From the NCBI GenBank assembly GCA_964016885.1, contig OZ024748.1, positions 21,700,001 to 21,764,000 on the forward strand: 64,000 nt of DNA, given 5' to 3'. This stretch comes from Eledone cirrhosa. Lineage: Eukaryota. A program made the translations under genes and the position numbers. The notes below the pieces were generated by a model. It made no database searches. It saw nothing but the letters and a program-made list of their open reading frames with translations, and was not told the origin of the DNA. Shown here in pieces: positions 17,365-61,524 of the stretch; positions within the stretch are counted from its first letter, which is position 1; every line of letters begins with the position of its first letter.

Positions 17365-17405
<41 letters not shown>

Positions 17406-17412
17406 GATATAT

Positions 17413-17465
<53 letters not shown>

Positions 17466-17480
17466 TAGATAGATATATAG

Positions 17481-17513
<33 letters not shown>

Positions 17514-20154: not shown

Positions 20155-20189
<35 letters not shown>

Positions 20190-20728: not shown

Positions 20729-20800
<72 letters not shown>

Positions 20801-26800: not shown

Positions 26801-28269
26801 GTTCTGTAGTGAGTGTTGTTGTAGTGGTGGTGGTTCTGTAGTGGTGATGATGTAGTTGTAGAAGTGGTTGTAGTTCTGTGGTGATGTAATGTTGTGATAA
26901 ACAAATAAAGAGAAATAAGAAATGCTACTTACTATATTGTCTTTATTCACCTTTACAGTGGACTCTGTGATACTGAGGAAGTCAGTGACTTTCAGTTTGG
27001 AGAAAAATTCATGCCAACTAAGTCTGGCAGAAATTTCTGAGACCCCTTGCAGGTAAACATCACTGAGAAGGATCCAATCATAACCTAGAAAAAATATATA
27101 TTTATATTCAGGGACAAAACTATCTATATTGAGTGCTCTGGCATAATATGAATATATATATAGAGAGAAGTATATAGATGATGATGGTGATGATGATGAT
27201 GGTAATGGTGATGATGATCATCATCACCACCATCGTTTTTATGTCCACTTTTTCATATTTGCATGGACTGGGCAAGTCCATTCCAGCACACTGCTCTCCT
27301 AGACAGGTTGCCTTCCCTGTTATTTACAGACTCTGTATCTAGTAGTACAATTTTTATTTATTTGGAGTTACTACTCTCCTAGATGGGTTGCCTTACCTGT
27401 GGCTTATTGAACCTACATCAACCCAACAAAAGATATATTAGTTAATTCTGTGGTCAGCAGTGGGGAAAATATTATATAATGTGGTTATGATTCTGATATT
27501 TAGTCCAGTAAGTGACTGTCATTTAGGGTATGTAATATGAGCAGGTGTGGTAGGAGGTAGTGAGGGACATCTGGCCACCAAAAGGGAGTCCTGTAAGTAG
27601 TCTCCATTAGAGTACCTGTGGTTGCAAAATAAACTTCTTAATTAAACAGCTACGACATTGTCCCCAGTAAGTTAGTACCAACATTATCACTAAGCAGTTA
27701 CGACATTGTCCCCAGTAAGTTAGTACCAACATTATCACTAAGCAGTTACAACACTGTCTCTAGAGTAAGTTGGTACCAACATTACCACTAAGCAGTTACG
27801 ACACTGTCCCTAGAGTAAGTTGGTACCAACATTATCACTAGATATATGCTGGTGATATAACTGTGCTGTAAACCTTCAGGTTGGGTAAAATGATATTGAA
27901 AGTTGGTAGAGAAAGGTACTGATTATAATGCCAAACCAACATCTTGAAAAGAAGCAATCAAGATAGTCTATGGGAAAACATACTGTATGGCAGGTTTTCC
28001 ATAATAGGTAAACAAACGTGAAACTAATGATGATGAAAAATCAGTTCTTACCTTGTAGGTCTTTACTCAAGTTGATCTTATTGCCATAAGATGGAGTAAA
28101 ATGAATCGCAGCCTCATCTGGGCAGAGCAAACCTTTGTTGGTCTTCAAGTAAACAATAGAAGACAAACCAGAAAAGACAAAGGAATTTGGATTTTTATCA
28201 TTTTGGTATTTCATGAACATAACATAGTTCACCAGAACTGCTTCATTCTTCAGCTGAATATATAAAGAA

Positions 28270-28303
<34 letters not shown>

Positions 28304-29162
28304 CATCCACTTTTCTAAAAAAATATATCATACACAAAAATGCCAGCACCAACAGTTTTCTAAGAGATGTCAACATGGACCTGTTATTTTTATCTAAAGA
28401 CATTTTTTTCCAATTCCACCCTGCCCGTCCCTTCAATCAATCTTATTTCTCATTCTTTCTTCTGATGAAGAACTAACGTCCAAAATGTTAAGACCCTCTT
28501 CCTACTATTTCAGGCATTAACTTAATATATTCCTTCCATATACTGTACCGATTGTGTTGTTATTTCTGTTTACCTTTTACATACATATATATATATATAT
28601 ATACACACATAATTGTATATATATATATACATATATATATATACAATTATGTGTGTATATATATATATGTATGTAAAAGGTAAACAGAAATAACACAATC
28701 GGTACAGTATATGGAAGGAATAAGTCCTAATGTGTCCTGTCTAAAATTATGTATATATAATGCCTGTATATATTAATCCATTTGTATCTCCTTTAAGTAT
28801 CGACAGTCGATCAACACGATACCAGACGTTAACGAGTGAAGTGCAGCTTGTCAAATCAGACCGAGGAAACAATGTTTCTAACAGTATTTCCAATTGCTAA
28901 TACTATCTGTTGGTCGCAAATCCAGGTAGGAAGAGCAACGTGAAATAAAGTGTCTTGCTCAAGGACATAATGCACTGCCTGGTCTGGTAATCAAAATCAC
29001 AACCGCACAAGCATGCCTGTGCGGTTAAGTTTTTTACACAAACATGTGATTTTCAGTTCAATCCCACAGCATGGCATCTTGCACAAGTGTCTTCTACGAC
29101 AGGCAAAGACTGACCAATGTCTTGTAGGTGATATTGGTGGATGCAAACTCTGTACAAGTCCT

Positions 29163-29215
<53 letters not shown>

Positions 29216-38200: not shown

Positions 38201-41200
38201 AAAGAAATGTAGAACACTGAAAGTGGATTGAACCTGTGGAAGAGGGAGCCCTAGGAAGACATAGGAACAAAAAGATATTCCTTCATACCTGTGCAGAAAC
38301 TTTGGTAGCATCCAGCAGTTTCTTTACAACAAACCAAGTGTCAACATTTCCATTGTAAGTTATTTCAACAATATCATATGGTTCATCATACCGCTGCATC
38401 ACTGTTTCTATGTCTTGAACCTGAAATACAAATTTTATATTTCTTATATTTTTCAAACTAGATTCTCAGACAAAAATCACTCTAGTCACTTTGTTAAGTT
38501 ATACATTTCTGATTATGTTCAATTATTCTAGGACAGGATATAAGTATAATGGATGAAGACTTCCAATTTGTTATTGGTGAGTATCTTCTTATGTCTGTAT
38601 TAATCCAAAACCATCACAGAAAATATCAATTTTTATTTCATATAAAACAAGAAAGTTGATAATTATTTCCACTCAGTTGTTATGTATTAGATAAGAGTTT
38701 ATATCTAAACTATCTTTCTACAACTAACTTCTGCTATATTTGGTGTTGTTGGTATTAGATAGTGTGAAGCTGTTGTCTGCAATAGACAAAAATTAACTCA
38801 TGATCAAGTTTTATGAACTTTCATTCTATATATTTCAATAATACTTTCTAAAAATTACATTCTTAACTAAATCTCCAAGGAATATGACTACAACACAGCT
38901 GCCCACTAAAACAGAAAGGTAGTAACAATACTTAACAGATATTTAAAACATACTAGTTTAGGTTTATTGTTATGGAATTGTAACAATAATATAATATTGG
39001 TCTACTGCTTGAAGAGTTGACAGTAAGTGTATTTTTATGTGATTGTAAACTAAATACCATCATCATCAAATTTAAATCACCACTGGAAACAGTGGGAACA
39101 CTGCATTATTGATGACTGCTTCATTCATAGTTAGTGCAGAGTTGCAATAATTCCTTGAGTTATAGCTTGGAGAGATGTAATTCATTAGAATAGCATTAAA
39201 TAATACATGAAAAATCTTTGTATGTTGTCTCTCTGACCCAATGAGGTATGAAAGTTGGCTGAAAAGTTCATAGGCTGACTATGAAGGATCGATGCTAAAG
39301 CTGTGAAATCTTGTATGCATTAATTTCAACTTATTAACAACTGCATTGTTTCTGTCCAAGGACTACGTTAAAAAAGAAACCTAATTTGGACAATCCATGA
39401 GAGTATCTTGGTCAGCCTATGAACTTTTCCGCCAACCCTTGATTCACTAGAATTGTTACGACTTCATCTCATTAAACTGTAAACATTAATAAGTATAAAA
39501 TGACATGTTTACCTCATTCCATGAGGGTCAAGACATTTGTGAAATACTTACCTCATTCCTTAAAGTGATCTTTTTAAGTCGATGTAAAAAGAGTAGCAGA
39601 GATGGGTGGATGTCATTGAAACTAGCAGCAAGAGATTTAGACTGTTGTACCCCATCCTTTAAGGGTAGAATAATCTTTGTAACCCAACTATTAAGAGAGA
39701 AGAAAATAAAAAAGGATGCTAAGAAGATTCTAAGATGAAAATTAAGAAAAACAAATGATGGAATATTGAGAATAGAAATTAAAACATTGTTGTTGTTGAT
39801 GATGGTGATGGTGGTAGTAGTGATGGTAGTGGTGGTAGTAGTAGTTGTCTTGATGTGGTGATGGTGGTAGTGGTTGTTGTGGTAGTGATGGTAATGGTGG
39901 TAGTGGTGATGATGATGGTAGTGGTGGTGGTGGTAGTGTGGTGATGGTTGTGTTGATGATGTGGTGATGGTGGTAGTTGTGATGATGATGGAAGTGGTGG
40001 TGTGATGATGGTGGTAGTGGTAGTGGTGATGGTGGTAGTGTTGATGAGGATGATGGTGGTGGTGGTAGTAGTGGTGGTGGTTGTGTTGATGATGTGGTGA
40101 TAGTGGTAGTGGTGATGATGGTGGTGGTGGTGATGATGGTAGTGGTGGTTGTGTTGTTGATGACGGTGGTGGTGGTGGTAGTTCATTATAGTGCTCCAAG
40201 CCATAACAGAGGAGTTTAAGACTGGATGCCCATGGGAACTTCTCTATGCTGACGATCTGGTTCTTATAGCAGAATCAGTAGAGGAGCTAGAGAATGAATT
40301 CTGGCTATGGAAACAGCAGTTGGAATTAAGAGGACTGAGAGTGAACCTAGCTAAGACAAAAATGTTGCTAAGTAGAAAAGAGGACAAAACTCTGAGTCCA
40401 TTAGATTCTATAAAATGTACACAATGCAGATCTTGGGTACACAAGAGATGTAGTGGGATAGCAGGCAAACTAACAGGTAGGGAGAAATACGTATGCAGTA
40501 GATGTACAGGGAAATTTGACAGTAGAAGTTGCATTGATAGACACATTTTTCAAATGCAGGTGGGTTTTATAGAAGTGGTTGATAGCTTCCGGTACCTAGG
40601 TGATCAGATTAGCATAGGAAGGGGGTGTTCCGAGGCCATAGTATCTAGAACAGGGGCAGGTTGGAAGAAGTTTAGGGAGCTGCATCCTCTGCTGACAAAG
40701 AAGGGTTTCTCCCTGCGTACGAAAGGCCAGTTATATGATGACGGTGTGAGATGTGCGATTCTGCATGGTAGTGAAACATGGGCAGCAACTGCAGAGGATA
40801 TGCGACGGCTGAAGAGAAATGAAGCAAGCATGCTCCGTTGGATGTGTAATGCCAATGTACGTGAACGACCAAGCATGGATGGGTTGAGAGAGAAACTGTG
40901 TATAAGGGGGATAAGTTGTAGTGTGCGGGAGAGAAGACTGTGATGGTATGGTATGGACATGTGATGCGCATGGAGGATGACCGCTGGGTAAAGAAGTGCC
41001 AAAAATCCCAGTAGAAGGAAGACGCAGTTGAGGAAGACCACAAAAAACATGGGCGGAGGTGGTGAGAGCGGACCTCATCGCTGAAGCTCACGGAGGAGAT
41101 GACGAAGGACCGTGACAAGTGGAGAGATGCTGTGCTGAATAGGACCTGTCCCACCCTTGCAAGCAGGGAAAAGTGGACGTAAAATGATGATGATGATGTG

Positions 41201-44200
41201 GTGGTGGTAATAATGATGGTAATAGTAGTGACAACGATGAAGATGATGATAATGATGTTGACAATGGTGACAATGATGTTAAAAGAAAAATGAAAACAAA
41301 CCTATCTTCTGGATCAAAGCAATTATCACTCCAATGTGGGAGGATATAGCCAGTTGGACCACTGTTTACATCAAAGTAAATGTGGTACTTGTTGGAATGA
41401 ATCTCAGGACAATCTGTTATCCTGAACACAGACTTGAAACCAATTCCTTTTTGACCTAAACAGAAACCATTCAAAATAAACTGTAGTGGAAATATGACAT
41501 TTATAGAGAAACTTGGATATATTCAATTACTCTGTGGGAGAATTATTTTAGCCATTAAACTGTTAACTTTACTTTATCAGTATTATCATTTAATATTCTC
41601 CCTGCTAGCAAGGGTTGGATGGGGCTTCACAGACTCAGTATTCAAGTGGAGATTGGATGGGGACCAGCATCTCACTTACATATATACCTGTGCTCTACTG
41701 TGTGCATTTTATCATGGCACCAACACTAATGAGGCCGTCATGTCTTTGTCACAATTGAAAGGTCCTCCCAACCCTTTGTATTTATATGTCATTTATTTCC
41801 AGGTATATAAAAAGTTGTCACATTGTCTGTGACTTGGTCAGCTTGCCAGAGAAATACATCTCCAAAACTTGGATATATTGCTGTCACAATAAATCTGATC
41901 TACTCAACACAAACAGATCTAAGTCCTATACCAACTGATATGTAAGAAACAATCCACAGATTCAACATCTTGGACATACAGATATAAGATGTATGAGGAG
42001 TTAGTTTTATTTGAATATTATAATTTTAATTAGTATTAGGAAGGGTATCCAGCTGTAGAAACCAAGCCAAAATACAGATCTATATGATATAGGAAAGACA
42101 TCCAGCTGTAGAAACCAAGCCAAAATACAGATCTATATGATATAAGAAAGACATCCAGCTGTAGAAACCAAACTAAAATACAGATCTGTATGATATAGGA
42201 AAGACATCCAGCTGTAGAAACCAAACTAAAATACAGATCTGTATGATATAGGAAAGACATCCAGTTGTAGAAACCAAACCAAAATACAGATCTGTATGAT
42301 ATAAGAAAGACATCCAGTTGTAGAAACCAAGCCAAAATACAGATCTATATGATATAGGAAAGACATCCAGCTGTAGAAACCAAACTAAAATACAGATCTG
42401 TATGAACAAGATGTGGTCTCCTGACATGACATGTCTCATAACATGACAACTCATCTAATCCATGCAAGCGTGGAAAAATAGTCATTAAATAATAATGATG
42501 ATGATGATGATGAAGCAGTGTTTCCATACTGGCTTTACTGAGGCATATTCTATCTTATTTAGGATTTAATACAATATACATGTGGTATTCTCTCTTATTT
42601 AGGATTTAATACAATATACATGTGGTCTTCTATCTTATTTAAGATTTAATACAATATACATGTGGTCTTCTCTCTTATTTAGGATTTAAGACAATATACA
42701 TGTGGTCTTCTATTTAATGTTGGTAGAAAGTTTGTTGAAGTAGAAATGGCTTCTACAAATGTATATACACAAGTATATATACGGGTATGTTTATATACAC
42801 AAGTATATATACAGGTATGTCTCTGTACATACATACATTCTAAACTAAATAGGTTTGTAAAATAACCATTGTTTAGTATATGGCTGATATTTAGATATAT
42901 TTCCTGAACAATTTTATATTTAACTCTTTATCATTTAAACCGACAATATCCGGCCAGAATTCTCTCACCTCTTTCTGTTCAAGTTGCTCGTAACTTACTG
43001 CTCATACTGATGTTAAGGTATTGTTCTCAAAATAAATAACATCAAAATATCATAAATTCGATATTATGTGAGATAAAACCTTTACCCACCAAAATACAAT
43101 AGTATTTATAGAGTAATGTTAAAGGGTTAAACAACACTGCTTTTTGCAGCACTAATTACTTTAGATTAAGATATGAAATATCAAACTCACCAATATAACC
43201 AAATTTACGTTTTTCTTTGGTACTCTTGCCAACATCACAGATGGCTCGAATATTTTTTTCCTTAAAACCAACCTCATTGTTTAGAATAGTCACTGAACTA
43301 CTATTTATACAGAACTTCACTGAGGGGCTGTCTGTTGAATCTTTAGAAGAAAACTTCTCTGGGTAGGTGTTGTCATCAGCATTTTGAATTAATTCCAACA
43401 CAAAATGAGAATCTTTACTATACAAGTCTTTAGATAATCTATCTAAACTACGACCTAGACGTTCTTGTTGTCGATCAATCAACTTCTGGCCATCAGCATT
43501 GAGTTTAATGCCAAGACCAAATTCTTCACGACGGATTGTTTCAATCAAAGCCCTCTGTGGGCAGATTTCTTCTTCCTTTTTCTCTTCAGGTAAAATCTCA
43601 CACTGTGTATTATTAGCATCTTCTGTATCACTTTCTTCATTTTCTTCATCAATTACAATAACATCTGTAAGAAGAAAAAAGATTTTTTTTCAAAATGCTA
43701 CTCAATTTGAAGTTGAAAATCTTGAAATATAAAGATAAAGATTTATTAACATACAAATGTACCAAGATTAAGATATAACATAGAAAGAAACTCAACATTT
43801 ATACACACACACATATCTATAACATGTTTAATGATGCTACCCATCTAACCACGGAAAATAGATGTTAATGATGATGTGTCATGTTCTGAGACATTAACAA
43901 TAGAAATAACATAGAACTGTACAAATATCACAATATACAGAACTCAACATTTATACACACATATCTATGATAATATCATCATTAACATCGTCATATTAAC
44001 GTCCACTTTCCATGCTAACAAGGGTTGAACAGTGGGTCATGTTCTGAGACATTTACTCTAACTTTACAGTTGATAGATTAACAATAGAAATAACATAGAA
44101 CTGTACAAATATCACAATATACAGAACTTAACACATATATGATAGCATGGAAAAATAAAAAACACTAAATAGAGAAAACAAAAAAATGTAAATACAGATA

Positions 44201-44424
44201 AACTAAAATTGATTACCAGAATTTTTATCTGATATAGCTTCAGGTTGATCATCATCCAATACCTCTACAGTCTCTGTTTCTGGAACTATATTTGTTATAG
44301 CTACAGTCTCATCTTCAGAAAAGTATATACTGTCTTCAGTGTCAGATTCTATGTGCTCATCCTACAGAGGAAAATAAAGAAAACCTAATTGGTAGTAATA
44401 TGTTCTATACACAAACATTTAGTT

Positions 44425-44488
<64 letters not shown>

Positions 44489-47400
44489 CGTGTGTGTTTG
44501 TATATATATGTATGTGTTTGTATATATATGTATATATGTGTGTATATATATATATATATACGTGTGTGTGTGTATATGTATATATGTATATATATATATA
44601 TATACGTGTGTGTGTGTATATGTATCATCATCATCATCATCGTTTAACGTCCATGTTCCACGCTTGCATGGGTTTGGACGGGAGTTTTCCCACTTGAGGC
44701 AAGAGTGATTGTCTTGCTCGCATAGGACTGTCAGGCGGGTTTTCTACAGCTAGATGCCCTTCCTAACACCAACCACATTTACCGTGTTACCTACACGGCC
44801 ACATTACAGCATGGACTATGTGTTTTTTTGTCGTGACACCTACACGATCTCATTTGTTTCAGCCTGGATGTTGTGGCACCAACATAACTTTACATTGAAA
44901 GGGGCGGTGTGGATGGGGTGGTGGGACGGGGGTGTATTTTGTTAGAGATGCCTACTGACTGTAGTAGGTTTTACTTTGTATTTAGGTAAGGCGGGTCTTC
45001 TCTATTACTGAGTACAGCCAAAGATCTCGGTATATATGTGTATATGTATATATATATATATATATATATACGTGTGTGTGTGTATATGTATAGATGTGTG
45101 ATTATATATATATATATATATATATGTGTGTAAATATTTTCACATTCAGTTGGAAATATTTTGGAATCCAAATATTCATATACCATATATACTTGAATAT
45201 AAGCAGGCTCCACTATTTTATGCCTGAGAAATAGGCAAAAATCCAAAGCTTTTTTTACATAGAATTTGAAGTTGGTGAAAATCGTCAAAATATTGACCCC
45301 AAACATAAGCTGAACACCTTCTACCATTGATTTTTTTTGGTCACATATTCTTCAGCTTATATTCGAATATATAGGGTAATTACACACCACCAATGGTTGT
45401 TTGAGTGTTTAGGTACATGAATAGATGCCAAAGTCTGTTACAGTTCATAAAGGTATTATATGAATTGCAAAAGTATGACAAGGATGGCTAAATACTAATG
45501 TTGGTGTCAAGCATTTAGCATAACCAGGCAATTAGTTAATTAAATACACTGATATTCATTGCTCTTTCTGGTTATCCCCACCCAGGGTTGCCAGATAAAT
45601 TTTATAAAAAGTAACACAAAATTGTCAAAGTAAGTAGTCCAAAATAAAAATTTTGATAGTAAATAGAAAAATATATAAATAAGGATTACCTGTAGATGGA
45701 TTCTAATTTACTCAGTTGATAATTTAATATTATAGTCAACAGGATTCTTATGTTTAAAAATTATCTTGGGTATCTATCATTAAAACACTCAAGAAACCTC
45801 CTATGAGATGTAAACTTAACTGGTACTTTATTTTATTGACCACAGAAAGATGGAAGGCAGGATTTGAACTCAGAATGTAAAGAACCAGAACAAATACCTC
45901 AATGATATTTTATCCAATGATCTACCAATTCTGATAATCCATCCCCCTCCAGAATGGTAAAAATATTTATTGTTTAGAAGTTTCATTTTTAAACAAGGTG
46001 TCTTCATATCATAAACAATTTCTATAATAAAGGATTATTTCCTGAGAAGTTACTATAGAAATTAAGACCCACTAGGAACTGGGAGACAACTTTGAAATAT
46101 ATTAGCGCTCTAGTCTTTCTTGTTTATCTTTTCCATGCCAAAAGCAGCCCTGGAAACGCCTAACCCTAATATTGCCACGCTTACCATAAATATTAAATAT
46201 TTTATATCAGTCATCTAAGACCTAACAAGTACTAGTAAAAATATATATTAAATATGTTGCCATCCACTCTGACTATAACTTTTCATACAGAAGGCCACCC
46301 TGGTGATTTCCCTGCAGTAATTTCGCTTCAATGTTTTGAATATTCCAAGAATTTGTTCGGAAATTTCAACTTACCAACTCTAGGTCATATAATATATCAT
46401 CTTTTCTGTTGCAAATTAAATTCAAGAGAAGAAAATATCCCTGAAACCTACCTCAAATTCTTTATCTGATTGCTGATCATCTTCCATTTCAGCTATAGTT
46501 TCAATTTCAGATGTCACGAAAGAACCTTTCATTTTATTTAAATCACCTGTCCACTCAGCAATGCCAAGAAAACATCCCAAAGTTTCAAGACGATTGGTCT
46601 CCTGTATATTTTGACGGTTCTGCCACAGAACAAGCTTAGATTCTGTTAAGCCAAGAACTTTCCCAAGTGGCTCCAGGAACATCTTTCAAAACAGAAATAA
46701 AATAGAAATATTATTACAAATTCATTACTTCTCAAAATAGAATATATCTAAATTAGTATTTTTCATTATTATTCAATAACAAGTTCACAACCACAGAACA
46801 GAATTACTATTACATAGTCACCATTGTGGAATTATTAGAATTTTAAACCCCTGTTCCACAGCTAGACACCCTTCAGAATGTAAACACTATTATTAGAGTT
46901 TGAAACCACAGTTCCACAGCTAGACACTCTTCAGAACACAAACACTATTCATAATTCGTATAAACTGAAATTCCGACCAAAGGTAATGTTCTCAGCCAAA
47001 CTGGACTCTTTAGGTTATATAATAACCAACATCCATCATATTTACCCTTTAACAGTAAACAACAATACACCTTTATGAAGGATATATCTGACCATGAGCA
47101 TAACTCCTCAATACAACTTAAAGCAAGTTGTTAATTAATCTGGTGATATTTATTTGGTTCACAGATGAGCCCCTTTACATAAATGTTGTTTCCCTATTTG
47201 TCCTGGTGGAACAGATTTTAAAAATCCTAATCTTTTCCAGTCTATTTCTTCATGTTGCTAAGTTTTCAGACAACAACCATTATTTCCAAACACCACTTCA
47301 ATAAATAAAAATGTTATAGTTGAGTTACGAAACCAGCCTAAATTCAGAGTTATTATTTTCTTGGTGGATTGGCAGTATCGGTAGAGAGTCGGACACCATG

Positions 47401-48930
47401 CTTTAAAGCATAGAGTTACGTCCCTTTATGATCGGAGTTCAAATCCCACCGAGGGTAACTTTGCCTTTCATCCTTACGGGGTCGATAAAATAAAGTACCA
47501 GTAATGTACTGGGTAATTGCTGGCCTTGTGCCTAAAATAGAAACAATTATTTTCTTAAAGGACAGTGGATTGGCAGTATCGGTAGAGCGTTGGACAATAT
47601 GCTTTACATTGTGAGTTGAGACTCTGCTGAGGTTAGCTTCACCTTTCATCCCTACAGGGTCGATAAAATAAAGCACCATTAATGTACTGGGGTAAATTTA
47701 ATCTACTTTCCCCTTCCCCAAATATTGTTGGCCTTGTGCCTGGGTCAGAAACCATTAGTTTCTTAAACACAACAATTGATTATATAGCCAACTGATGTAT
47801 ATATATATATAAGTATCCATATATAAAAGAGTCTCACCTTATTTGCAACAGACACACAAATTTTAATGGGTAAACGTACTAAACAGTCCAATACAAACTT
47901 AGCAGGGTTGCCAATATATTTTTCATTATCTAGAAATATCAAAAGATAACAATGATCAGAAAGGTTATTCTTGTGGAAAAAAAGTATACAAGAGCCAAAA
48001 TATATATATTTAAATATAGACACAAATATCTATGAATAGATTATACACACCAACACTTTATATCTGAGATCATTCACATCTTTGCATTACTACTACCATA
48101 GCCCACATTTACATGAAAACCGTCTGATAGGTCCATAAACAAACCTTTATAAAAGTCTTCCAGTTCCAAACCTTCACTTTTCTATGTTCTCTCTCTTCCT
48201 TTGCTACACAGCTCTATGGTACTTGCCAGTTGTATCTCATCTACTCTTTCAATCTGATTCTCTTTAAATAGTCCTTCATTTTTAGGGTTTTCACGATGAA
48301 AACCTCCTTTGCCTTCTTATCTGTTACTATAGTACACATATTTCCAACTCATCAAGCATGTATAAATGGTCTCCTAGTTTTAATAATTTATTTTTCCTCC
48401 CAGGGAGGTTCATTGTTGAGCTGTACCAGTGATATGAACATGATGACATGATGGCTATTATAGATAAGGAGAAGAAAATCATCCATTCTTATCTTACATT
48501 GCAGCAATAAAAGAAAATATTTGAAAACAACTTACCTTGTTTGTTGTTAGTGTCATTATTTAATGTGAAGAGAAGTGTCAGTATGATATTGGAGAGGTAG
48601 GCAAATGGTGTCATAGCCAGACCTTTATTGTGGACAATGAGGGAAACAAGATGACCACAAATGTTGACCATATCAATCCTAGAACATGCAGAGGAGAACT
48701 TATCTACTGAAGTTTCACTGACAACTTTTAAATATTTTCCTGGTTCAGTCTCAAGGACCATAAAATCAGTACGTACTGACTTTCTACCACCTGTAACAAA
48801 TAATGATATATATAAGCAAGGAAAAGTGGACGTAAAATGACGATGATGATATATATATATGTATGTGTGTGTATATCTAAACCCATGCTAGCATGGAAGA
48901 TAGACGTTAAATGTTGATGATGATGATATA

Positions 48931-48962
<32 letters not shown>

Positions 48963-51900
48963 AAAACTTCCTAACAAACTGATATCATTGATAAACATGA
49001 GGGTACCTGAACTTTGAGCCCAAGTTGCACACCCAAAATGTATAATATCTCACCTGTTCGACAAATTTACTCAGGATCTTAAGTAAAAGAAGATCTCTTA
49101 AATATCTCCACATTTAGTGTCAAATTTATTTCTATTTCACCAAGTAAGCAATCTCTAAATTTCACTAATATTGTAAGAGTAATCTTAATATCACCTTTAG
49201 TAAGATATTTTACCTGTTTACAGCAATACTAAATATCAATCACAGGTATGAGATGTATATCAACAAGATTTAACTAATTTATGAAATATCACCTTTAGTA
49301 AGATATTTTACCTGTCTACAGCAATACAAAATATCAATCACAGGTATAAGATGTATATCAACAAGATTTAACTAATTTATGTAATAGATAACACACAAAT
49401 AGTAATGTTTGAAAAATTAACAAATGTAGATCGGATTTGATCAATATTACCATCACTTATACACATTACCAAACTAACCTAAACATACAACAATATCAAG
49501 CAGTCTTTAAAACCATTTCTGTATTAACTGAAATGAATAATGAACAAGAAAAATCAAAACATACCATCAAGTTCTATGTATTTCTCTCCACCATATTTGT
49601 GTACAAAGTCAAGCAGCTTTCCAAATTGTGGTTCAAATACTAAAGGCCAATGAGACCAAGCAGATATGTCTTCAAGTAATGGACAATTATGTAATGTTGC
49701 AAGAGCAGTTTCTTGACTCTGATGCCCTAATATTCCAACCTTGGCAAGGGTAATATTCATTGATCTGAAAACCATATGAAGTAGTGACAGTCATTCTTAG
49801 TCAATGGTAACATATGTGAAGTAGTGACATTTATTTTTAGTCAATGGTAACATAAAGAATGCCACAGTATTGAAATATGCAGGTCACATCAAGCTGTACC
49901 TTGAGATAAAAAGGACAAATCCTGAACACTATAGATCTTTCCTGCAATCAGACCTGGACACAATGCAACAAGGATCACCGACTAGCAACTCAAGCTGGCT
50001 GTGGACAAATGTACCACCATGCATTTTGGGAGGAAAAACACAGCGTACACATACTCCCTCGACAACACTGATATCAAGAAGTCTTCTTGTGAACGTGACC
50101 TGGGCATTACGGTCAGCAGCGATTTGCGTTGGACAAAGCACGTCTCTAAAATTGTCAAGAAGGCCGAGGGTGTTTTAGCATCACTCAGCAAGACCTTTGT
50201 CAGCCGCTCTCCAGCTATCTATTTAAAGCTGTATATAACTACGGTGCGGCCACACTTAGAATTTGCATCACCAGTCGGGAACCCCTATCTTGCTCAGAAC
50301 ATTGACCTCCTGGAAACTGTTCAGAGATGTGCAACCAAGCGAATACCCTCCATCAGGCATCTACCATACTCTGAACGCCTTGCTTCCCTGGGCATGGATA
50401 CATTGAAGCTCCGACGTCTGGCAACTGACTTGGTTAACACCCACAAAATTATTAACCATCTTGCCAACAACAACCCTGAGCACCTTTTTGATTTCCATGT
50501 GTCTAATACACGTGGACATGCCTACAAAGTCAGAAAATAGCCCAGCTCCCATGACTTTCGGAAACATTTTTTACATTCAGAGTTGCTGAAGCATGGAACA
50601 AACTACCTGCATCAGTTGTTAGCTGCCGAGACACTGCATCCTTTAAAACCATGCTTCCTGAAATTCGGCAGCACTATACCTGATATTTTCCTTCCATACA
50701 CACATGTATATCACAACTCATACACTGTTCATTTTCCTGACAATTGTACATTATTCTATGTACTATACATAGAGTTGTATTGCACCTGAGCACTGTACAC
50801 AATAATTTCATTATTATATGTAAAATGGTGACATTTATTATTAGTGAATGGTAACATATGTAAAATGGTGACATTTATACTCAGGCAAAGCTTTTTATTA
50901 AAGTGTGTGTGATTAAAATTATTGAAACAGGACAGTATTACAGCTGTTTCTATCATCATCCATTCCAAAAAGTGTACTGGAAGCCCTCAGTCGTTTCTGA
51001 CAATGAGTGCTCTAGTTGATTTAATCAACAGAATTACCAGCTCATGAAATTAATGTGTAAGTGGCTGAGCATTCCACAGGCATAAAGCTCATACAGTAAA
51101 GTACTTTTGTTGCTATAGTTTGAATTCTTTGATATATCAGTTCAAAATTTAGACCACCCCTTAAATATAAAATAGAGTCAGCCAGTCTCGACTGAATTTC
51201 TCAACCTGCTAGAAATGGCTGCCAAATTACACCTTACAAAGTTGAAGAAAATGTAAGAGAAAAATGTGAATAATGTTGGCCTAGATTCTAGGCCAGCATT
51301 ATCCAAATTTTTCTCTAGGCCCAAGATACACAAAGCCTAAATAAATATAGTTTAGTCAAGATTATAGGTACATTCAACCAGGAATGACTTGAGGTTAAAC
51401 ATAAATAATATCTAGATAAAATACAATAAGAGAGAACTTAAACAAATGATTATAAGAAGGACAGTAGAACTTTTACCTTTCTTGTGAACAGAGTGCAGCT
51501 TCATAAAAGACATGCGGTGCTGGATGTGGTTTTTTACTGGCTAAATCAACTATATGCTGGATAGTACCAAGACCAATTCCTTTTAAGTTATTCACAGTAT
51601 AATGATGGCAGAGAGCATTTTCAATCAAATTATTCTGGAAATATAACATAACTCAATGATTAAATTATAATTTAAGGGTGAAGTTGATTAAATAAACCCC
51701 AGTACTTGACTGGTACTTTGTTTTATTGACCATGGAATGATGAAAGACAAATTTGACCTAGGTAGGATTTGAACTCAGAACATAAAGAACCAGAAGAAAT
51801 ACTGCAAAACATTTTTTCCATGGTTTAACTGATTCTGCCAAACCACCATCTTCACAAGATAATACAAAACTACCTAAATGCAAGAAAATGTTTTAAAACA

Positions 51901-54900
51901 ACTTACTTGTGTTGTGCAGGAATCTTTACACTGAACTATAAAGTTACAAACATCTGCCAGTGAAGCTTTATATACACCAATTCCACTCTTGTCACTGTCA
52001 GAAGATGTTCCAGAGATTGTAAGACCAGCTTCATCCAAAATCTAGAAACAAGAAATGTTCCATAAACTCAAGAAAGGAATAGTGTATGTAAAAGGCTGAC
52101 TATAAAAACAAAAACAAAAACTAATGTTTATTTGTAATATCAACTAAACTACCTACTCCTTCATATTTTAATGATTTAACAGAACCTATTAGCTAATTAT
52201 GTTCTCATGTTTTTTAAAAATAAAAGTAGATTTTAATCAACTTTCTTTTCATAATTAGCCTACAATTTATGTATTGAAGTACCATATATATCCAAATATA
52301 AGCAAACCCCCGCTATTTTATGTCTGAGAAATGGGCAAAATTTCCAAACCCCATTTATAAGCCGAAGCAGCTAATCAACACATTGTTTAGATGGCACATA
52401 TAAGCCAACCCCCCTCCCATTTTACCAACAATTATTTGGTCACATATTCCTCAGTTTATATTTGAGTATATACGGTAACTGTAGTCGTCATAGCTACTAC
52501 AAATATCACCACTACTATTAATAGAGAAGCCACTTACTTTTTTTATCGACATATTATTCTGGAGGAATGAAAGAAATCGTCCATAACCCATATTGGAAAA
52601 GGTTGTCATGTTAAATTCTTCCAGTAACTTCTCTTCAATTTTGTTGAAATGATTCAAATTTAATGTCCCTGAAGACATGTATTTTTCCAGATATTTTTTC
52701 AAAGATTGAAGTACTTGTTCTGAAAAATAAAGGTAGAATATATATACAGTATACCCCTGGCATTCATGGTCCTGGTTATTCGCGGAATTTCCCTTAGAAC
52801 TTAATTAATAATTGTTCATGGAAACCACCGGATATTCACGGAATCGTAAATATCTTCCGCAATTTTTTTAATGCCTTTTTTTGAGGCAATATATATTTTT
52901 TTAACCCTAAATTATTAATAACAATACACCATATTTGCCAGCCTATTGGACGTCCCATTGCATAAGATGCTCCCTCTTTTTTTTATTATTATGTTTTGAC
53001 GTTTATAGGCATGTTTATGGATCACGTCCAATATACGTGGTTTTTCACTCTTTGCAGGTGCTCTAGGAATGTAATCCCTGCAAATACCAGGGGATAACTG
53101 TATGATTTTCTTATTCCTCCTAAAAACTTGATCCAATCACTAAATTATGATTTCTCATTAGGCACAAAACCAATTTTTCTGACATGTCCCTTAACTTTAT
53201 CTTCATAGGGTTTATGAAGGACAAATCATCATGGTGACTAAATTCTTTTCCAAGTTATACCCACAGACAAGCTGAACTAAATACCTGTCAATTATACAGT
53301 CCTTTTGTTAATTACATTTCTAGGTCACCTAGGTAACAAAAGCTATCCAAAAATTATAGATTGTTTCTGAAAATTGCTAAAATTGAAGCATTGGGATGTA
53401 TTTATTTTTCAAGAAATGTTTGTTAATAAATATTTTAAAAAGCTTGGCCACAAGATAGGAGACAACTCATTTTATCATGTGAGTTTGTGGAGTTGCAAAG
53501 ACAAATAAATCAGAGTCTTTGCAGTGGACACAATGCCAAGATACAATCTCTCACCTGGTTGTCTAGTATTCTTTCTACAGTCAACTCTCCTCAATTTTAG
53601 TAGAGAAATAGTAAACAGTTAATACATAGAAGTAGTATATAGTTGAATGAGGGCTATAGGCACCTAACAATAACAATAGTTAAAAATTTAGAGGTTGCCC
53701 TACTAAAGTATTTCAAAATCTTACCTTTTGGAGGAGGGGGCACTTCATTCTTGTTAGTTTCATTTACTGGGGACTGAGGACTTCGTTCTAGAAATTCCAG
53801 AGCAGTTGCTTGTAGTTCAGTACTACTAACACAAATAGCAACATGAAACACAGTCTTAGCTAGATCATGACTACTTATTTGCTGAAAGAAATTATTAGAA
53901 ATCTCTATAAATTTTCTTTTTTGTTTCTGTTCAAATATAGTTCTAGGTTCATAAATTTCAAGCAACAAGCATAGCCGTTCAAATATCTCTTTTAGAGCAG
54001 CATCAGCTGACATTTTAGCATAGTGCTCCTTCAAATATGTTTCATTTTGTTTTGTTGCAAGAATATAACCACGGAATTTATTGAAAGCGCTTTGTATTTC
54101 TTCAATTAATTTGAACTTCATATCATCAAAGACTTTCTTGGTAAGGGCTGAATCATCTTTCTGGGCACGTTTTATGACCTGTAACAGATGACATTGTATA
54201 AATGTATTTAAAATAGAAAGAATTAACACTGGAATAAAAATAGGTAAAACAATTCCAATATTTAAATAAACAAAGATATCCTTACCCCAATAGCAAGTGG
54301 GAGGCTTCTCAAGCGAATCCCAAGTTGAAATGGATCATTGTAATAAAAAGCTTTTGTCAAATAAGACATAACTTCAGGCATTTCGTGTTTCTTATACCAA
54401 TTATTCTCATTAAGGAAATTTCTTATATTATCTAAAATATCCATTGTAGTAAGGTCTGGGTAGCTTTCTTCACCAGGAGGAAATTTAAACAAATCAAAAA
54501 TAATTTGCATCTTATGAAAAGGACCCAGTTTTAAACTTTGAAAGGAATTGCTTTCGTTCACATAAAGTGTAACACATTCTTCTAGTTCTTTCAGTGTGCA
54601 TACAGACCGAACTGTCACAAAGGCTTGAATATAAGCATTTACTTTACATGCCATACGGTTATGCTCATGAACTGAAGGCAAATAATCTAAATTACGGATA
54701 CCAACTTCACGGATATTTCTCTTTCTAAGACGTTTAAGGAAAAGATTTTCAATAGCTTGAGCAGATACATATTCCTTATTATCAGCAAGTATTTCAATAC
54801 ATTCTTTGGCTATTTTATCAAGCTGTTCTTTAGACAGTGTCTCCCCAGGAGCAATATTTAAGGGAGGTATTACAATTTCTTTTTCATTTGTTTTTGGTGG

Positions 54901-57266
54901 AGGGAGTTTGGAAAAAGGAGCAAGATGAAAACTATCAGTAACATGTTGTAAATTAGGAACAGGTTGTTGCCTGAGGGGGAATGCTGGTTCACCCCATTTA
55001 GGAGCTTGCATTTGATTAACTAACGGAAACATATTTTGGGAAGAATTGTGTCCTTTTAAATAAACCATTATTGTATTGTTCTGTATTAAAACATTAAAAC
55101 ATCGAAATTCAGGCAACTTAAAAAGTTCTTCAAAATTACTGACATTATAATCTTGAAAGTTAAATGGGGACTTTTGATATTTTCTATTATAGAATTCCAT
55201 CAATTGATGCAGTGATAAACCCTGGGGTGAGTTCACAACAATGTCACAGAATCTTTGTCTAACTTCAACTAGAGATGGTTTTGATGGGTCACTTCGTATA
55301 GTTTCATTAAGTGATGGAAAATTATATATGTTGTCTCCTAAGTAGGATGAGCTTTTCTCAGCAGATGGTTCATTGGAATCACTTGAAGTTTTCTTTTTTA
55401 CATATAGTTCATTCTTTTCAGCCACCTCTATCACCACATCAGAAAGTTGTTTCAGGAATTCATATAAATTATTGAAACCATAATCTTTAGGGTTGATAAC
55501 ATGTCCTTGCCTCTCAGCCACTTTATCCCAAAAATGTTCACGTTTTATTTTACCCTTGTGTTTATCAAGAGCTTCACATATGACCTTTTTAAGATCTTCA
55601 AAACTGGGTTTATTTACCATTCTGGTTTTATTAACTGGAAAGAAAAAGAAAAATTCAATTCAATGAAAGGAAAAAAATATGTCAACTGGAAAAAAAAAAA
55701 AAAAAAAAGATTTAAAAGAACCAATTGTAGAAAGTTGACTTAACATTTCAGTAACTCATGAATAGCTGGTGATGAATTCACTGAAGTTGCTTAAGTTTCT
55801 ATACCAAACTTCTGCTATTAAAGTTAATTGGTGTTATTGATGTATGGGTGTGTTTAGATGATAATAAAGATTTGAGAACCGTGACCTCTGGCATCACGCA
55901 GTAATACAGAAGACCCGACTTCCCACGAGTACAAGCCGAAGCTGAAGCATAATAGAAAATATCCACCCCACCCCCCACGCAAAGTGATCATGGAGGTGTC
56001 ACAACAAAAAAAATCACCCAGTCCACACTATAAAGTGGTCGTGTAGGCGCCATGGTAAAAAGGCACCCAGTACTCACTATAAATGAAGTTGGTGTTAGGA
56101 AGGGCATCCAGCTGTAAAAATGAAGCCAAAATCAGTTCCCATATGAGCAAGACAAGGTCACCCGACCTGGCATTGCCCACAACAGGACAATCCATCTAAC
56201 CCACGCTAGCGTGGAAGAATGGACATAAATCGGTGATGATGATGATGAGGGTGGGATTGTTCTTCTATAGTTATTACTTGATATACATATTGATAGAAAT
56301 CATTTAGCTTCAAGCTTAAATATGCTGCTGCTGTTGTTTATTCCTCCTCATTGAATAATGCTTCTTACATAATTCCACTGACTGCTACAATTCTATGTTA
56401 TGTATTCATCTTTTCTAAGATATAATGTTCAACTACACTCTATAATTTTCATCTGTACAATTACAGAACATTCTCCTCAAAATTTTCTCATCATTCTGTG
56501 GCCTCAGCCCAAATACACTCAATGATAATTTCCAAGTAGGTCTGTCACTCAATGCATTGCCAAGATCCCAAACATCAATACCAGAGTCTCTGACTATGAT
56601 ATCTGGATAGGAAAGCTTGTGACCTCTTTGGTTTTTGACAGATGTTGGTTTCCTAAGCACCAAAGGAGACAGTTTCATTTCATATGATAATTTTCTAGTC
56701 TATACTGTTTATCTTTCGTATTAAAAAAAAGTTAAAAGTTTAAAACACTTTCACATGTTTCCACTCCTTTGCTGTCTTAATGTCTGCCTGTTTGACTACA
56801 ACAGATAAAATTTCATTTCAACATATGTATCCTGGTTTTTTTTAGAACAGGTATACTGTGTCTCTGCATAGACAAGTAAAAAATAAAGGCTATTGTTTGG
56901 AGAGTGAAATTGATAAGTAGTATGTATCATTAACACTTTCTTTTAAAAACTATAACATTTTGGTTGGAACTTCTCTTCTCACAAAAGTATCATATAGAAA
57001 GTAACAAATATTTACAAACCTGATTTTAACTTCACATATGAAATATTATTCTCTGAAACAATTTCAAGATTTTCATAAAAATCAAATAATTCATTCATAT
57101 TAGTCACACCATATCTGACTTTTGATCCAATTCCTTTTATATTACGGTTCACAATATCCCAAAAATGAGATTTTTCTACACCATGTGGATGCTGTTTCAG
57201 GAGATTTACAATCTCCTGATTCAGCCACATCCTTTTCTGTTCCATCAGAGATGATGCATTTTCCAT
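12441..57266 (-). CDS. NOV: NO VEIN-like / sacsin-like giant protein: LOTUS-like x3, GHKL ATPase, DUF3883 nuclease-like C-terminus (33 coding exons, about 2909 aa)
   Basis: Exons 5'->3': 57266-57020, 55634-54286, 54178-53725, 52719-52538, 52041-51907, 51634-51477, 49764-49565, 48790-48536, 47929-47838, 46682-46452, 44361-44217, 43664-43191, 41455-41302, 39687-39552, 38420-38289, 37429-37349, 36457-36385, 32908-32796, 32458-32299, 31958-31722, 30508-30302, 29873-29692, 28253-28052, 27084-26933, 24906-23694, 22561-22323, 22031-21844, 21753-21575, 20944-20831, 18522-18271, 16991-16902, 15380-15189, 12952-12441. All junctions are phase-compatible; total 8730 nt. Motifs: [59 protein letters not shown]...IEVKST. 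Confidence 0.9.
13691..14833 (+). mobile_element. RTE-clade LINE 3' fragment with 3'UTR and (GAT)n tail
   Basis: [15 protein letters not shown]-like CxxC...[21 protein letters not shown]; 3'UTR recurs at 55880-56250. Confidence 0.88.
15189..15380 (-). CDS. NOV-like exon 32 (bipartite NLS-like RRKR...KAKR)
   Basis: tag / gtaaga; phase 1-1. Confidence 0.75.
16510..16820 (-). mobile_element. CR1-type LINE 3' end
   Basis: reverse complement of 50520-50810; another copy at 20220-20710. Confidence 0.8.
16902..16991 (-). CDS. NOV-like exon 31
   Basis: cag / gtgagt; phase 1-1, open frame. Confidence 0.65.
18271..18522 (-). CDS. NOV-like exon 30 ([15 protein letters not shown] repeats)
   Basis: tag / gtacat (weak donor); phase 1-1. 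Confidence 0.7.
19366..19688. repeat. Imperfect inverted repeat, about 126-bp arms
   Basis: 19366-19491 vs 19563-19688. Confidence 0.88.
19412..19502 (-). ncRNA. Degenerate type I hammerhead motif with long stem II
   Basis: UUCAU-CUGAAGA-..GUUCCC...GGGAAC..-GAAA-uacuuaca-AUGAA; the opposite arm keeps GAAA-UAAUUA-UA|AUGAA. Confidence 0.5.
20220..20710 (-). mobile_element. CR1-type LINE 3' fragment
   Basis: homologous to 50220-50810. Confidence 0.75.
20831..20944 (-). CDS. NOV-like exon 29 (HSWPPASP)
   Basis: tag / gttagt; phase 1-1. Confidence 0.72.
21215..21545 (-). mobile_element. RTE-clade LINE 3' fragment
   Basis: near-identical to 6245-6600. Confidence 0.8.
21575..21753 (-). CDS. NOV-like exon 28 (LPSDEIPW)
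   Basis: cag / gtaagt. Confidence 0.83.
21844..22031 (-). CDS. NOV-like exon 27
   Basis: tag / gtaagt; open frame VQELEVWY...IARYF. Confidence 0.83.
22323..22561 (-). CDS. NOV-like exon 26
   Basis: tag / gttagt; within ORF 22215..22526. Confidence 0.85.
22605..23045. repeat. About 41-bp minisatellite, about 11 copies
   Basis: aaatgtattttagtcatatagtcaaaggtgaacatatatat. Confidence 0.9.
23694..24906 (-). CDS. NOV-like exon 25 (large)
   Basis: 404-aa ORF; tag / gtaagt. Confidence 0.92.
25050..26560. repeat. 27-bp minisatellite, about 55 copies
   Basis: aaaatatagttttataataaagtggt(c/t). Confidence 0.95.
26933..27084 (-). CDS. NOV-like exon 24
   Basis: tag / gtaagt; WILLSDVYL...[13 protein letters not shown]. 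Confidence 0.85.
27645..27842. repeat. 48-50-bp tandem repeat, 4 copies
   Basis: cagttacgacattgtccccagtaagttagtaccaacattatcactaag. Confidence 0.85.
28052..28253 (-). CDS. NOV-like exon 23
   Basis: cag / gtaaga; TNKG...IHFTPSYGN. Confidence 0.86.
28458..28493 (+). ncRNA. Degenerate paralogue of the 63379 hammerhead
   Basis: tcttctgatgaagaactaacgtccaaaatgttaaga within a ~250-bp homology to 63270-63510. Confidence 0.55.
28529..28722. repeat. Inverted repeat centred on (TA)n
   Basis: ttccttccatatactgtaccgattgtgtt... vs ...aacacaatcggtacagtatatggaaggaa. Confidence 0.85.
29267..29324 (-). ncRNA. Type I hammerhead ribozyme motif
   Basis: CCGU-CUGAAGA-GCUUAGG CUAUC uuaacu GAUAG u CCUCAGU-GAAA-UAUGUA-UA|ACGG. 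Confidence 0.7.
29692..29873 (-). CDS. NOV-like exon 22
   Basis: tag / gtcagc; IINHHILP. Confidence 0.83.
30020..30300. repeat. About 60-bp tandem repeat abutting the exon 21 donor
   Basis: atctggtctttaaagacatctggtgaaatatataatagtacatgttgatagctac. Confidence 0.8.
30302..30508 (-). CDS. NOV-like exon 21
   Basis: tag / gtaagt; [16 protein letters not shown]. Confidence 0.87.
31505..31702 (+). mobile_element. piggyBac-type MITE
   Basis: same family, TTAA flanks. Confidence 0.82.
31722..31958 (-). CDS. NOV-like exon 20 (ends at GC donor)
   Basis: tag acceptor; CAG/gcaagt donor gives the required phase 1. Confidence 0.82.
32299..32458 (-). CDS. NOV-like exon 19
   Basis: tag / gtaagt. Confidence 0.87.
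32796..32908 (-). CDS. NOV-like exon 18 (DFDLPSNRE...WNQWL)
   Basis: tag / gtaagg. Confidence 0.9.
33158..35908 (+). mobile_element. Full-length decayed piggyBac DNA transposon
   Basis: TTAA on both sides (33154-57, 35909-12); ends CCCTTTAG... and ...CTAAAAGG; splits a SINE tail (gacattaa|acgatgatgat). Confidence 0.9.
33424..35078 (+). pseudogene. piggyBac (PGBD4-like) transposase pseudogene
   Basis: [54 protein letters not shown] and a C-terminal Cys-rich knuckle; interrupted by stops and frameshifts. Confidence 0.9.
36385..36457 (-). CDS. NOV-like exon 17 ([19 protein letters not shown])
   Basis: cag / gtagat. Confidence 0.9.
37349..37429 (-). CDS. NOV-like exon 16 (STEIALAFP)
   Basis: cag / gtttgt. 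Confidence 0.85.
37535..38265 (+). mobile_element. RTE-clade LINE RT fragment (decayed)
   Basis: [27 protein letters not shown]. Confidence 0.85.
38289..38420 (-). CDS. NOV-like exon 15
   Basis: cag / gtatga; open frame. Confidence 0.82.
39247..39443. mobile_element. Mariner-type MITE (second copy at about 32555-32738)
   Basis: TIRs GTTGGCTGAAAAGTTCATAGGCTGAC / GTCAGCCTATGAACTTTTCCGCCAAC. Confidence 0.75.
39552..39687 (-). CDS. NOV-like exon 14 (WVTKIILPL...[11 protein letters not shown])
   Basis: tag / gtaagt; sacsin-type LLFL motif. Confidence 0.9.
40186..41197 (+). mobile_element. RTE-clade LINE 3' fragment
   Basis: [22 protein letters not shown]; tail ggacgtaaaatgatgatg. Confidence 0.9.
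41302..41455 (-). CDS. NOV-like exon 13 (GHKL G2 box [11 protein letters not shown])
   Basis: tag / gtttgt. Confidence 0.93.
42038..42405. repeat. 53-bp minisatellite derived from the SINE AGGAAGGGCATCC domain, about 7 copies
   Basis: aggaaagacatccagctgtagaaaccaagccaaaatacagatctatatgatat. Confidence 0.9.
42548..42715. repeat. 39-40-bp tandem repeat, 4 copies
   Basis: tctatcttatttaggatttaatacaatatacatgtggtc. Confidence 0.85.
42924..43126 (+). mobile_element. piggyBac-type MITE
   Basis: same family, TTAA flanks. Confidence 0.8.
43191..43664 (-). CDS. NOV-like exon 12 (GHKL N-box [19 protein letters not shown])
   Basis: cag / gtgagt; sacsin-type ATPase motifs. Confidence 0.93.
44217..44361 (-). 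CDS. NOV-like exon 11 (acidic)
   Basis: tag / gtaatc; phases fit both neighbours. Confidence 0.78.
45183..45376. mobile_element. pogo/Tc1-type MITE (second copy at 52282-52475)
   Basis: TA-CCATATATACTTGAATATAAGC...GCTTATATTCGAATATATAGG-TA. Confidence 0.75.
46452..46682 (-). CDS. NOV-like exon 10
   Basis: aag / gtaggt; [10 protein letters not shown]. Confidence 0.85.
47838..47929 (-). CDS. NOV-like exon 9
   Basis: tag / gtgaga; [10 protein letters not shown]. Confidence 0.83.
48536..48790 (-). CDS. NOV-like exon 8
   Basis: cag / gtaagt; within ORF 48489..48761. Confidence 0.85.
49565..49764 (-). CDS. NOV-like exon 7
   Basis: cag / gtatgt; [24 protein letters not shown]. Confidence 0.88.
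49870..50812 (+). mobile_element. CR1-clade LINE 3' fragment
   Basis: [40 protein letters not shown]. Confidence 0.9.
51477..51634 (-). CDS. NOV-like exon 6
   Basis: cag / gtaaaa; IENALCHHY...VFYEAAL. Confidence 0.8.
51907..52041 (-). CDS. NOV-like exon 5
   Basis: tag / gtaagt; open frame ILDEAG...SCTTQ. Confidence 0.8.
52538..52719 (-). CDS. NOV-like exon 4
   Basis: cag / gtaagt; [13 protein letters not shown]. Confidence 0.85.
52747..53100. mobile_element. Tigger/pogo-type MITE
   Basis: TA-CAGTATACCCCTGG...CCAGGGGATAACTG-TA. Confidence 0.72.
53725..54178 (-). CDS. NOV-like exon 3
   Basis: within ORF 53654..54229; cag / gtaaga. Confidence 0.88.
54286..55634 (-). CDS. NOV-like exon 2 (LOTUS-like domains 2-3, start of NOV N-terminal region)
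   Basis: 452-aa ORF; cag / gtaagg. Confidence 0.92.
57020..57266 (-). CDS. NOV-like exon 1 (start ATG; LOTUS-like domain 1)
   Basis: AAAATGG start 11 nt after a cag acceptor at 57277; G/gtttgt donor. Confidence 0.8.

Positions 57267-61494: not shown

Positions 61495-61524
<30 letters not shown>

Follow-up and report, generated by a model that had tools for sequence, protein, structure and literature searches.

An intact NO VEIN/Tiamat gene of the octopod Eledone cirrhosa encodes three N-terminal LOTUS domains and short linker motifs

We analyzed a stretch of 64,000 nucleotides from the octopod Eledone cirrhosa (assembly GCA_964016885.1, contig OZ024748.1, positions 21,700,001 to 21,764,000 of the forward strand; hereafter, the window, to which all coordinates refer). 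The window contains an intact gene of the NO VEIN (NOV)/Tiamat family, and the encoded protein begins with three LOTUS (OST-HTH) domains, followed by a region that is shared with plant NOV, a Sacsin-type GHKL ATPase, and a C-terminal NOV_C nuclease. We slightly favor the view that this is an animal NOV whose LOTUS head would place the ATPase-nuclease on cytoplasmic messenger ribonucleoprotein particles (mRNPs) for nucleic acid surveillance. The gene and its main domains are as follows:

12441..57266, minus strand: whole NO VEIN/Tiamat gene (exon model based on tblastn, open frame)
57020..57266, minus strand: first coding exon, with an ATG that matches the Argonauta start (exon model)
57024..57242, minus strand: LOTUS repeat 1, amino acids 9-81 (AlphaFold2 model, structural matches, and a profile of 88 domains)
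55390..55611, minus strand: LOTUS repeat 2, amino acids 91-164 (Pfam OST-HTH and the 88-domain profile)
55054..55281, minus strand: LOTUS repeat 3, amino acids 201-276 (Pfam OST-HTH below the cut-off, and the 88-domain profile)
32299..43664, minus strand: Sacsin-type GHKL ATPase, about amino acids 1185-1545, exons 12-19 (pieces of Pfam SACS, PADLOC TmtA with E = 3e-29, and motifs)
12441..12952, minus strand: NOV_C (DUF3883) PD-(D/E)xK nuclease, last exon (Pfam NOV_C at 71.5 bits, TmtA with E = 2e-23)

The best match to exon 2 among 201 proteins was a "protein NO VEIN-like" from Argonauta hians (GAB1610178.1), and the exon model was built on tblastn with the Argonauta NOV-like protein (P0001). 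The Argonauta protein maps along the window in order, from 57266 to 12444; the two proteins are colinear from Met1 to the stop, share the same three LOTUS repeats, and are identical at 1,837 of 2,840 aligned residues (65%). The model has 33 coding exons (57266 to 12441) that encode 2,909 amino acids with zero internal stops. Its introns are of the GT-AG type (31) or the GC-AG type (1). The GC donor belongs to the intron after exon 20 (position 31722), where use of a GT donor at a distance of 4 nt would disrupt the reading frame. A splice acceptor sits 11 nt upstream of the ATG of the first coding exon, which suggests an intron in the 5' untranslated region. In addition, sequencing run X1, whose contigs cover neither exon 1 nor the LOTUS-coding stretch of exon 2, yields alignments at 52538-52721 and 53725-53858; these break off precisely where the donors of exons 4 and 3 are predicted, and the contigs continue beyond. 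This is the pattern expected of spliced transcripts, although X1 is not on record as RNA.

A first-pass annotation of the window had proposed that the three repeats are LOTUS-like. Pfam, an AlphaFold2 model, and structural matches agree with this proposal: the repeats are real LOTUS domains. Against Pfam's OST-HTH family (PF12872, with a gathering cut-off of 23.8 bits), exon 2 scores 35.7 bits and repeat 2 alone scores 24.4 bits, but repeat 3 alone is below the cut-off (17.8 bits, E = 0.003), and repeat 1 has no Pfam match. The profile check that had been suggested is thus passed by the protein and by one of its three repeats. A profile of 88 LOTUS domains, which excludes three seed proteins, scores repeats 1, 2, and 3 at 43, 43.7, and 23.1 bits (best shuffle, 7.3 bits). 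A smaller profile, made from 9 domains of four Pfam-positive fish proteins, places repeat 3 (14.8 bits) clear of the best shuffle (6.4 bits) but does not clearly separate repeats 1 (7.1 bits) and 2 (6.4 bits) from it.

For repeat 1, AlphaFold2 gave a confident model (pLDDT of 87.6), which is a winged helix-turn-helix fold nearest to solved LOTUS domains. Its top structural matches are the LOTUS domains of TDRD5, TDRD7, Tejas, and MARF1; DNA-binding winged helices also match it, with lower Z. The possibility that the repeats would model as an unrelated fold is thus dismissed for repeat 1. Foldseek gave a best TM-score of 0.79 (to TDRD5), yet no match with E < 0.001. When repeats 2 and 3 were folded without an alignment, the model had a pLDDT of 48 and no meaningful structural match, and a sequence search of the PDB with these two repeats returned a single, chance-level match.

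The protein also has the features of NO VEIN, or eukaryotic Tiamat, in its catalytic half. The GHKL ATPase has its catalytic glutamate (Glu1240) within ExxQNADD, along with NNExG, DVG, and GxKGIGFKS boxes. The C-terminal NOV_C has the expected E, D, E, and K (Glu2786, Asp2821, Glu2843, and Lys2845), which we matched by motif order to residues of Arabidopsis NOV named in a recent preprint (10.64898/2026.09.30.755639; here and below, what we report from other papers refers to the available part of their text). By these motifs, the residues of both catalytic sites are retained, and the enzyme likely cuts nucleic acid. The half from the ATPase to the nuclease resembles bacterial Tiamat (TmtA), which matches the Argonauta ortholog with E = 5e-137 and the window's exons with E = 3e-29 and E = 2e-23. 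Tiamat lacks the N-terminal extension of about 1,150 amino acids, which includes the LOTUS repeats as well as the linker motifs and the helical units (U1-U5) that are described below. By analogy with the model proposed for Tiamat, the ATPase is probably a dimeric clamp that gates a nuclease dimer. The parallel to MARF1 (Limkain) that had been drawn from the sequence is a loose one: MARF1 combines minimal LOTUS domains with an NYN RNase, and LOTUS is joined to a nuclease in both, but the nuclease in the window is of the PD-(D/E)xK type, a GHKL ATPase lies in between, and the LOTUS domains are at the N-terminus. Pfam found neither NYN nor RRM in the nine exon-bearing frames of the window, and the Argonauta ortholog gives only OST-HTH, SACS, and NOV_C.

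The first-pass annotation considered the LOTUS domains to be a lineage-specific accretion that is absent from plant NOV. The statement about plants was borne out, but the fusion is not new, nor is it confined to one lineage. It is described in two preprints, both dated 1 October 2026. One reports N-terminal LOTUS domains in 316 of 918 eukaryotic Tiamat proteins, with carriers among green algae, sponges, cnidarians, molluscs, echinoderms, and fishes; land plants had none (10.64898/2026.09.30.754977). The other describes animal NOV with LOTUS domains and three unannotated N-terminal motifs that are common to plants (10.64898/2026.09.30.755639). Zebrafish wu:fj29h11 has LOTUS domains, plant-shared motifs, GHKL ATPase, solenoid core, and NOV_C in the same order as the window protein (10.64898/2026.09.30.754977, 10.64898/2026.09.30.755639), with four LOTUS copies instead of three. 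The architecture itself was thus rediscovered here, having been published in October 2026, and the value of our analysis lies in the details.

Using a profile that we built, we found LOTUS domains in 70 of the 150 homologs listed (one copy in 47, two in 18, three in 4, and four in 1); many of the 80 negatives are fragments. The carriers span abalone, scallop, mussels, crinoid, shark, and bony fish. In particular, Argonauta has three copies; Haliotis, Mizuhopecten, Potamilus, and Sinanodonta have two each; Anneissia has one; and, among the fishes, Heptranchias has four, Lepisosteus and Stigmatopora have two each, and Denticeps has one. The profile found no LOTUS domain in Owenia, in Pomphorhynchus, in a partial Candidula protein, in one further record, or in any of six plant NOV sequences from three species. 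The comparison of N-termini across orthologs therefore agrees with the original expectation for land plants but not for molluscs, an echinoderm, and fishes. The proteins from Haliotis, Potamilus, Sinanodonta, and Anneissia have one or two profile domains yet no Pfam OST-HTH match, and the published LOTUS counts may be low, with Pfam missing copies. Because Pfam misses many molluscan copies, the fusion is probably more common than has been counted. Only the one-to-one matched set of three looks specific to cephalopods: each window repeat clusters with the Argonauta repeat at the same position (support of 0.92-1.0), and the set appears to be shared at least by these two octopods. Repeats 2 and 3 also have counterparts in a more distant homolog (P0002).

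Vasa binding by LOTUS domains requires a conserved C-terminal helix, which is missing from minimal LOTUS domains of the MARF1 type (PMC5458760). In a test on sequence only, we saw no conserved helix after the beta hairpin in the flanks of the repeats. The spacer from repeat 1 to repeat 2 is just 9 residues long; downstream of repeats 2 and 3, the flanking sequence is rich in serine or proline and unlike that of Argonauta; and 82 of 112 LOTUS flanks across the family contain a proline. Because of the short spacer, the unconserved flanks, and the frequent prolines, the repeats are very probably of the minimal, Vasa-independent type, and because they have no conserved C-terminal extension, they are unlikely to bind Vasa. 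This bears on an alternative in which the repeats recruit the germline helicase Vasa/DDX4 and bring NOV to nuage or germ plasm to act in silencing of the piRNA type, as with Oskar, TDRD5, and TDRD7. It is true that TDRD5, TDRD7, and Tejas are the best structural matches of repeat 1, and that testis is among the many tissues with high expression of fish homologs (10.64898/2026.09.30.754977), but those structural matches span only the core that is common to all LOTUS domains. Also, green algae carry the fusion (10.64898/2026.09.30.754977), and plants are named among the organisms that have no Vasa ortholog (PMC5458760). The extension is disordered until bound, and hence sequence alone is not fully decisive; we consider this alternative very unlikely. 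Minimal LOTUS domains bind G-quadruplex RNA (PMC7498356), and it is fairly likely that the repeats, whose net charge is just +1 to +3, bind G-rich or structured RNA, with the tandem copies adding avidity.

The linkers around the LOTUS domains contain two short motifs:

55309..55320, minus strand: FPxL motif of the RACK1-interacting type, putative, amino acids 188-191, in the linker between repeats 2 and 3 (linker motif counts)
54982..54996, minus strand: WGxPA motif, amino acids 296-300, in the linker after repeat 3 (linker motif counts and pattern scan)

Both motifs are conserved in linkers that are otherwise unalignable. We considered 71 LOTUS-bearing proteins (the window's and 70 homologs), with six isoform duplicates dropped and 22,076 non-LOTUS N-terminal residues. 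FPxL occurs once per protein in 28 of the 71 linker sequences (in 300 shuffles, the mean was 4.5 and the maximum was 13), and the narrower [DENS]FPxL occurs once each in 25 of them (shuffle mean of 1.2), as compared to 4 occurrences in 40,740 residues downstream. Homologs from abalone, scallop, mussel, annelid, shark, gar, and Denticeps carry FPxL, as do 5 of 25 proteins without LOTUS. WG occurs in 24 of the 71 (shuffle mean of 7.6 proteins), and GW is at chance. When we ranked 33,490 three-residue patterns in an unbiased scan, the top six (WG..A, W..PA, DFP, FP.L, DF..L, and WG.P) all belonged to these two motifs. The window protein bears both motifs and Argonauta only WGxPA; neither is present in any of the six plant sequences. 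We do not claim that WG is a GW/WG Argonaute hook, as the WG order alone is enriched, usually once per protein.

FPxL binds RACK1 in structures of ZAK and SERBP1 and is common to LARP4 (PMC12823453), and RNF10 has the RACK1-interacting motif as FPxF (10.64898/2026.08.26.747346). As in those proteins, amino acids 188-191 are a conserved FPxL/F, one per protein, in a disordered and poorly conserved linker. The words "RACK1" and "FPxL" are absent from the main text of both NOV preprints, and neither WGxPA nor the repeat nature of the plant-shared motifs is described there (10.64898/2026.09.30.754977, 10.64898/2026.09.30.755639). We found no paper that ties NO VEIN/Tiamat to RACK1 or FPxL by title or abstract, in a search that most subscription papers were outside of.

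From the domains of this intact gene, we infer a mechanism, including each binding step and the role in defense. The three N-terminal minimal LOTUS domains would bind RNA; the FPxL linker motif would dock on the ribosomal protein RACK1; and WGxPA, as the third part of a targeting head, would contact some partner. Together, LOTUS and FPxL would place the ATPase-nuclease on cytoplasmic mRNPs. In our best reading, the protein would be an RNA- and probably ribosome-targeted surveillance nuclease. Plausibly, the protein acts on nucleic acid of viruses or transposons that it meets in RNA granules or on ribosomes, although we lean slightly against this. More tentatively, FPxL may bind RACK1, at its blades 2-3, on 40S subunits, which we consider somewhat improbable. 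P-body localization has been predicted for Tiamat homologs, and about half of those predicted there bear LOTUS domains (10.64898/2026.09.30.754977); also, knockdown of NOV in Nicotiana leads to more virus (10.64898/2026.09.30.755639).

Several observations weigh against surveillance on mRNPs. The presence of FPxL alone is weak evidence, because 4.5-6% of all ribosome-fraction proteins carry a putative FPxL (10.64898/2026.08.26.747346). The putative motif is missing from 43 of the 71 LOTUS-bearing proteins, including the nearest relative, Argonauta, in which a shorter linker joins repeats 2 and 3. Unlike the known RACK1 binders, the family does not have the companion motif of ZAK and LARP4 (S-aromatic-A-x-hydrophobic), which was found in 0 of 71 linkers and is not enriched. 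Furthermore, the 71 linker sequences are related, so the motif counts reflect conservation by descent and not independent gains. The characterized bacterial Tiamat, from B. cereus, has ATPase activity and cuts single-stranded DNA, which fits poorly with a site on mRNPs, and the antiviral tests in the same preprint include no eukaryotic homolog (10.64898/2026.09.30.754977). The antiviral evidence from plants is a knockdown phenotype (10.64898/2026.09.30.755639). Finally, Arabidopsis NOV is nuclear, as well as essential (10.64898/2026.09.30.754977).

This last observation would fit a different role for NOV, as a housekeeping or developmental regulator that is nuclear, as in Arabidopsis, and has no job in defense; the LOTUS domains would then be winged helices that bind protein or DNA. 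The family is mostly vertically inherited in animals (10.64898/2026.09.30.754977), repeat 1 is one of the protein's better conserved segments (67% identity with Argonauta, as compared to 80% for the ATPase), and DNA-binding winged helices are among the lower-scoring matches to its model. However, repeats 2 and 3 have changed more quickly than other parts of the protein (43% and 54% identity), the number of LOTUS domains varies from 0 to 4, NOV has been lost in tetrapods and ecdysozoans (10.64898/2026.09.30.755639), and the linker motifs suggest cytoplasmic ribonucleoprotein (RNP) partners. We think that this housekeeping or developmental role is unlikely.

If NOV does act in surveillance on mRNPs, a bolder version of this reading can be proposed, although it is doubtful. 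Animal NOV would be a ribosome-docked descendant of an anti-phage enzyme: FPxL would clamp RACK1 in competition with SERBP1 and ZAK, the tandem minimal LOTUS domains would read G-rich RNA, and the ATPase-gated nuclease would police translating viral or transposon RNPs, with U1-U5 as older LOTUS-like repeats. Where and how animal NOV acts is left open by both preprints, and the conserved FPxL offers a handle on the link to the ribosome. If that link is true, then an anti-phage ATPase-nuclease has been rewired onto a hub of eukaryotic translation surveillance in aquatic animals, farmed fish and molluscs among them.

There is a second sequence version of exons 2-3. A contig of 1,805 nt over 53829-55633, from three DNA-like runs of one sample, has 28 differences from the window. 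Its read depth is roughly double that of the window-type letters, and read depth gives no copy number; run X1 shows the second-version letters as well. The second version may be an allele or a paralog. Among the 27 differences shown, 13 of 14 codons are residue-changing in the stretch from repeat 2 through the linker to repeat 3, versus 8 of 12 elsewhere, a contrast that is not significant (P = 0.15). Within that stretch, a ratio of nonsynonymous to synonymous rates (dN/dS) of 0.3 or less is rejected (P = 0.003) and neutrality is compatible with the data (P = 0.21); ordinary purifying selection is excluded for this comparison. Neutral drift would be expected if repeats 2 and 3 were dispensable duplicates, with one LOTUS domain that matters and no function in the number three, and most LOTUS-bearing homologs (47 of 70) do have a single copy. 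However, diversifying selection on a pathogen-facing surface would give the same excess of changes. Also, given their counterparts in Argonauta and P0002, the repeats have been long retained, with the pattern of the fold intact. That they are dispensable thus seems highly improbable.

After the LOTUS domains and their linkers comes the region that is shared with plants:

54292..54837, minus strand: helical units U1-U3, amino acids 349-530 (alignment with plant NOV and profile-profile links)
51477..52719, minus strand: helical units U4 (amino acids 684-739, exon 4) and U5 (amino acids 772-821, exons 5-6) (profile-profile links)

This region can be aligned to NOV from a lycophyte, a fern, and Amborella, and a search with exon 2 finds NOV from Diphasiastrum, Amborella, and Ceratopteris. 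It consists of five units of about 55 amino acids with the pattern helix, helix, Leu/Met-Gly, helix. Position-matched profiles link U4 to U5 (97% probability), U1 to U5 (92%), U2 to U5 (88%), and U1 to U4 (80%); other pairs are weaker, such as U2 and U3 (3%), and no pairing with either of two control segments reaches 9%. The units are probably repeats of one another. Our initial comparison of the units to LOTUS was inflated by cross-recruitment between units, and we repeated it on position-matched alignments. Against the LOTUS profile, U1 (51% probability), U5 (17%), and U3 (7%) match in the same register, with 0 of 40 shuffles as high for each; U2 and U4 do not match. The best of 61 windows along the protein is the one that holds U1. 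A pooled profile of the units reached 4%, which is within the range of the shuffles, and searches of PDB, Pfam, and the Atlas with the plant-shared region returned nothing usable. Thus, the units weakly resemble a LOTUS core without the beta hairpin ("wingless"), and we treat kinship with LOTUS as a doubtful lead. On that rather unlikely view, U1-U5 would be five older, wingless LOTUS-like repeats, and the visible LOTUS domains would be the latest additions to an array older than the split between plants and animals.

Farther along the protein, the variable linker ahead of the nuclease contains tandem repeats of a 7-amino-acid peptide (18271-18522, minus strand, about four copies), and Argonauta has another, different short duplication in the same linker. 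The introns of the gene contain several repetitive elements. The first intron has an interspersed repeat of very high copy (55858-56200; summed depth of about 800,000, versus 10-20 in its flanks), which by inference is SINE-like. Four intronic pieces, at 40182-40943 and 49986-50540 (plus strand) and at 21131-21496 and 56436-56699 (minus strand), are presumably decayed reverse transcriptases of long interspersed elements (LINEs). Minisatellite arrays lie inside introns at 25052-26559 (27-nt unit), 22607-23044 (41 nt), and 42047-42405 (53 nt), with another at 2557-6117 (34-175 nt). Upstream of the gene, at 61114-61500, is a palindrome with two 190-nt arms that are 99% complementary and are separated by a 7-nt spacer; it is either a real hairpin element or an assembly artifact. 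On the other side, the 3' exons of a ubiquitin-specific protease gene (9483-11104, plus strand, with a piece of Pfam UCH) are arranged tail to tail with respect to the NOV gene, at a distance of about 1.3 kb.

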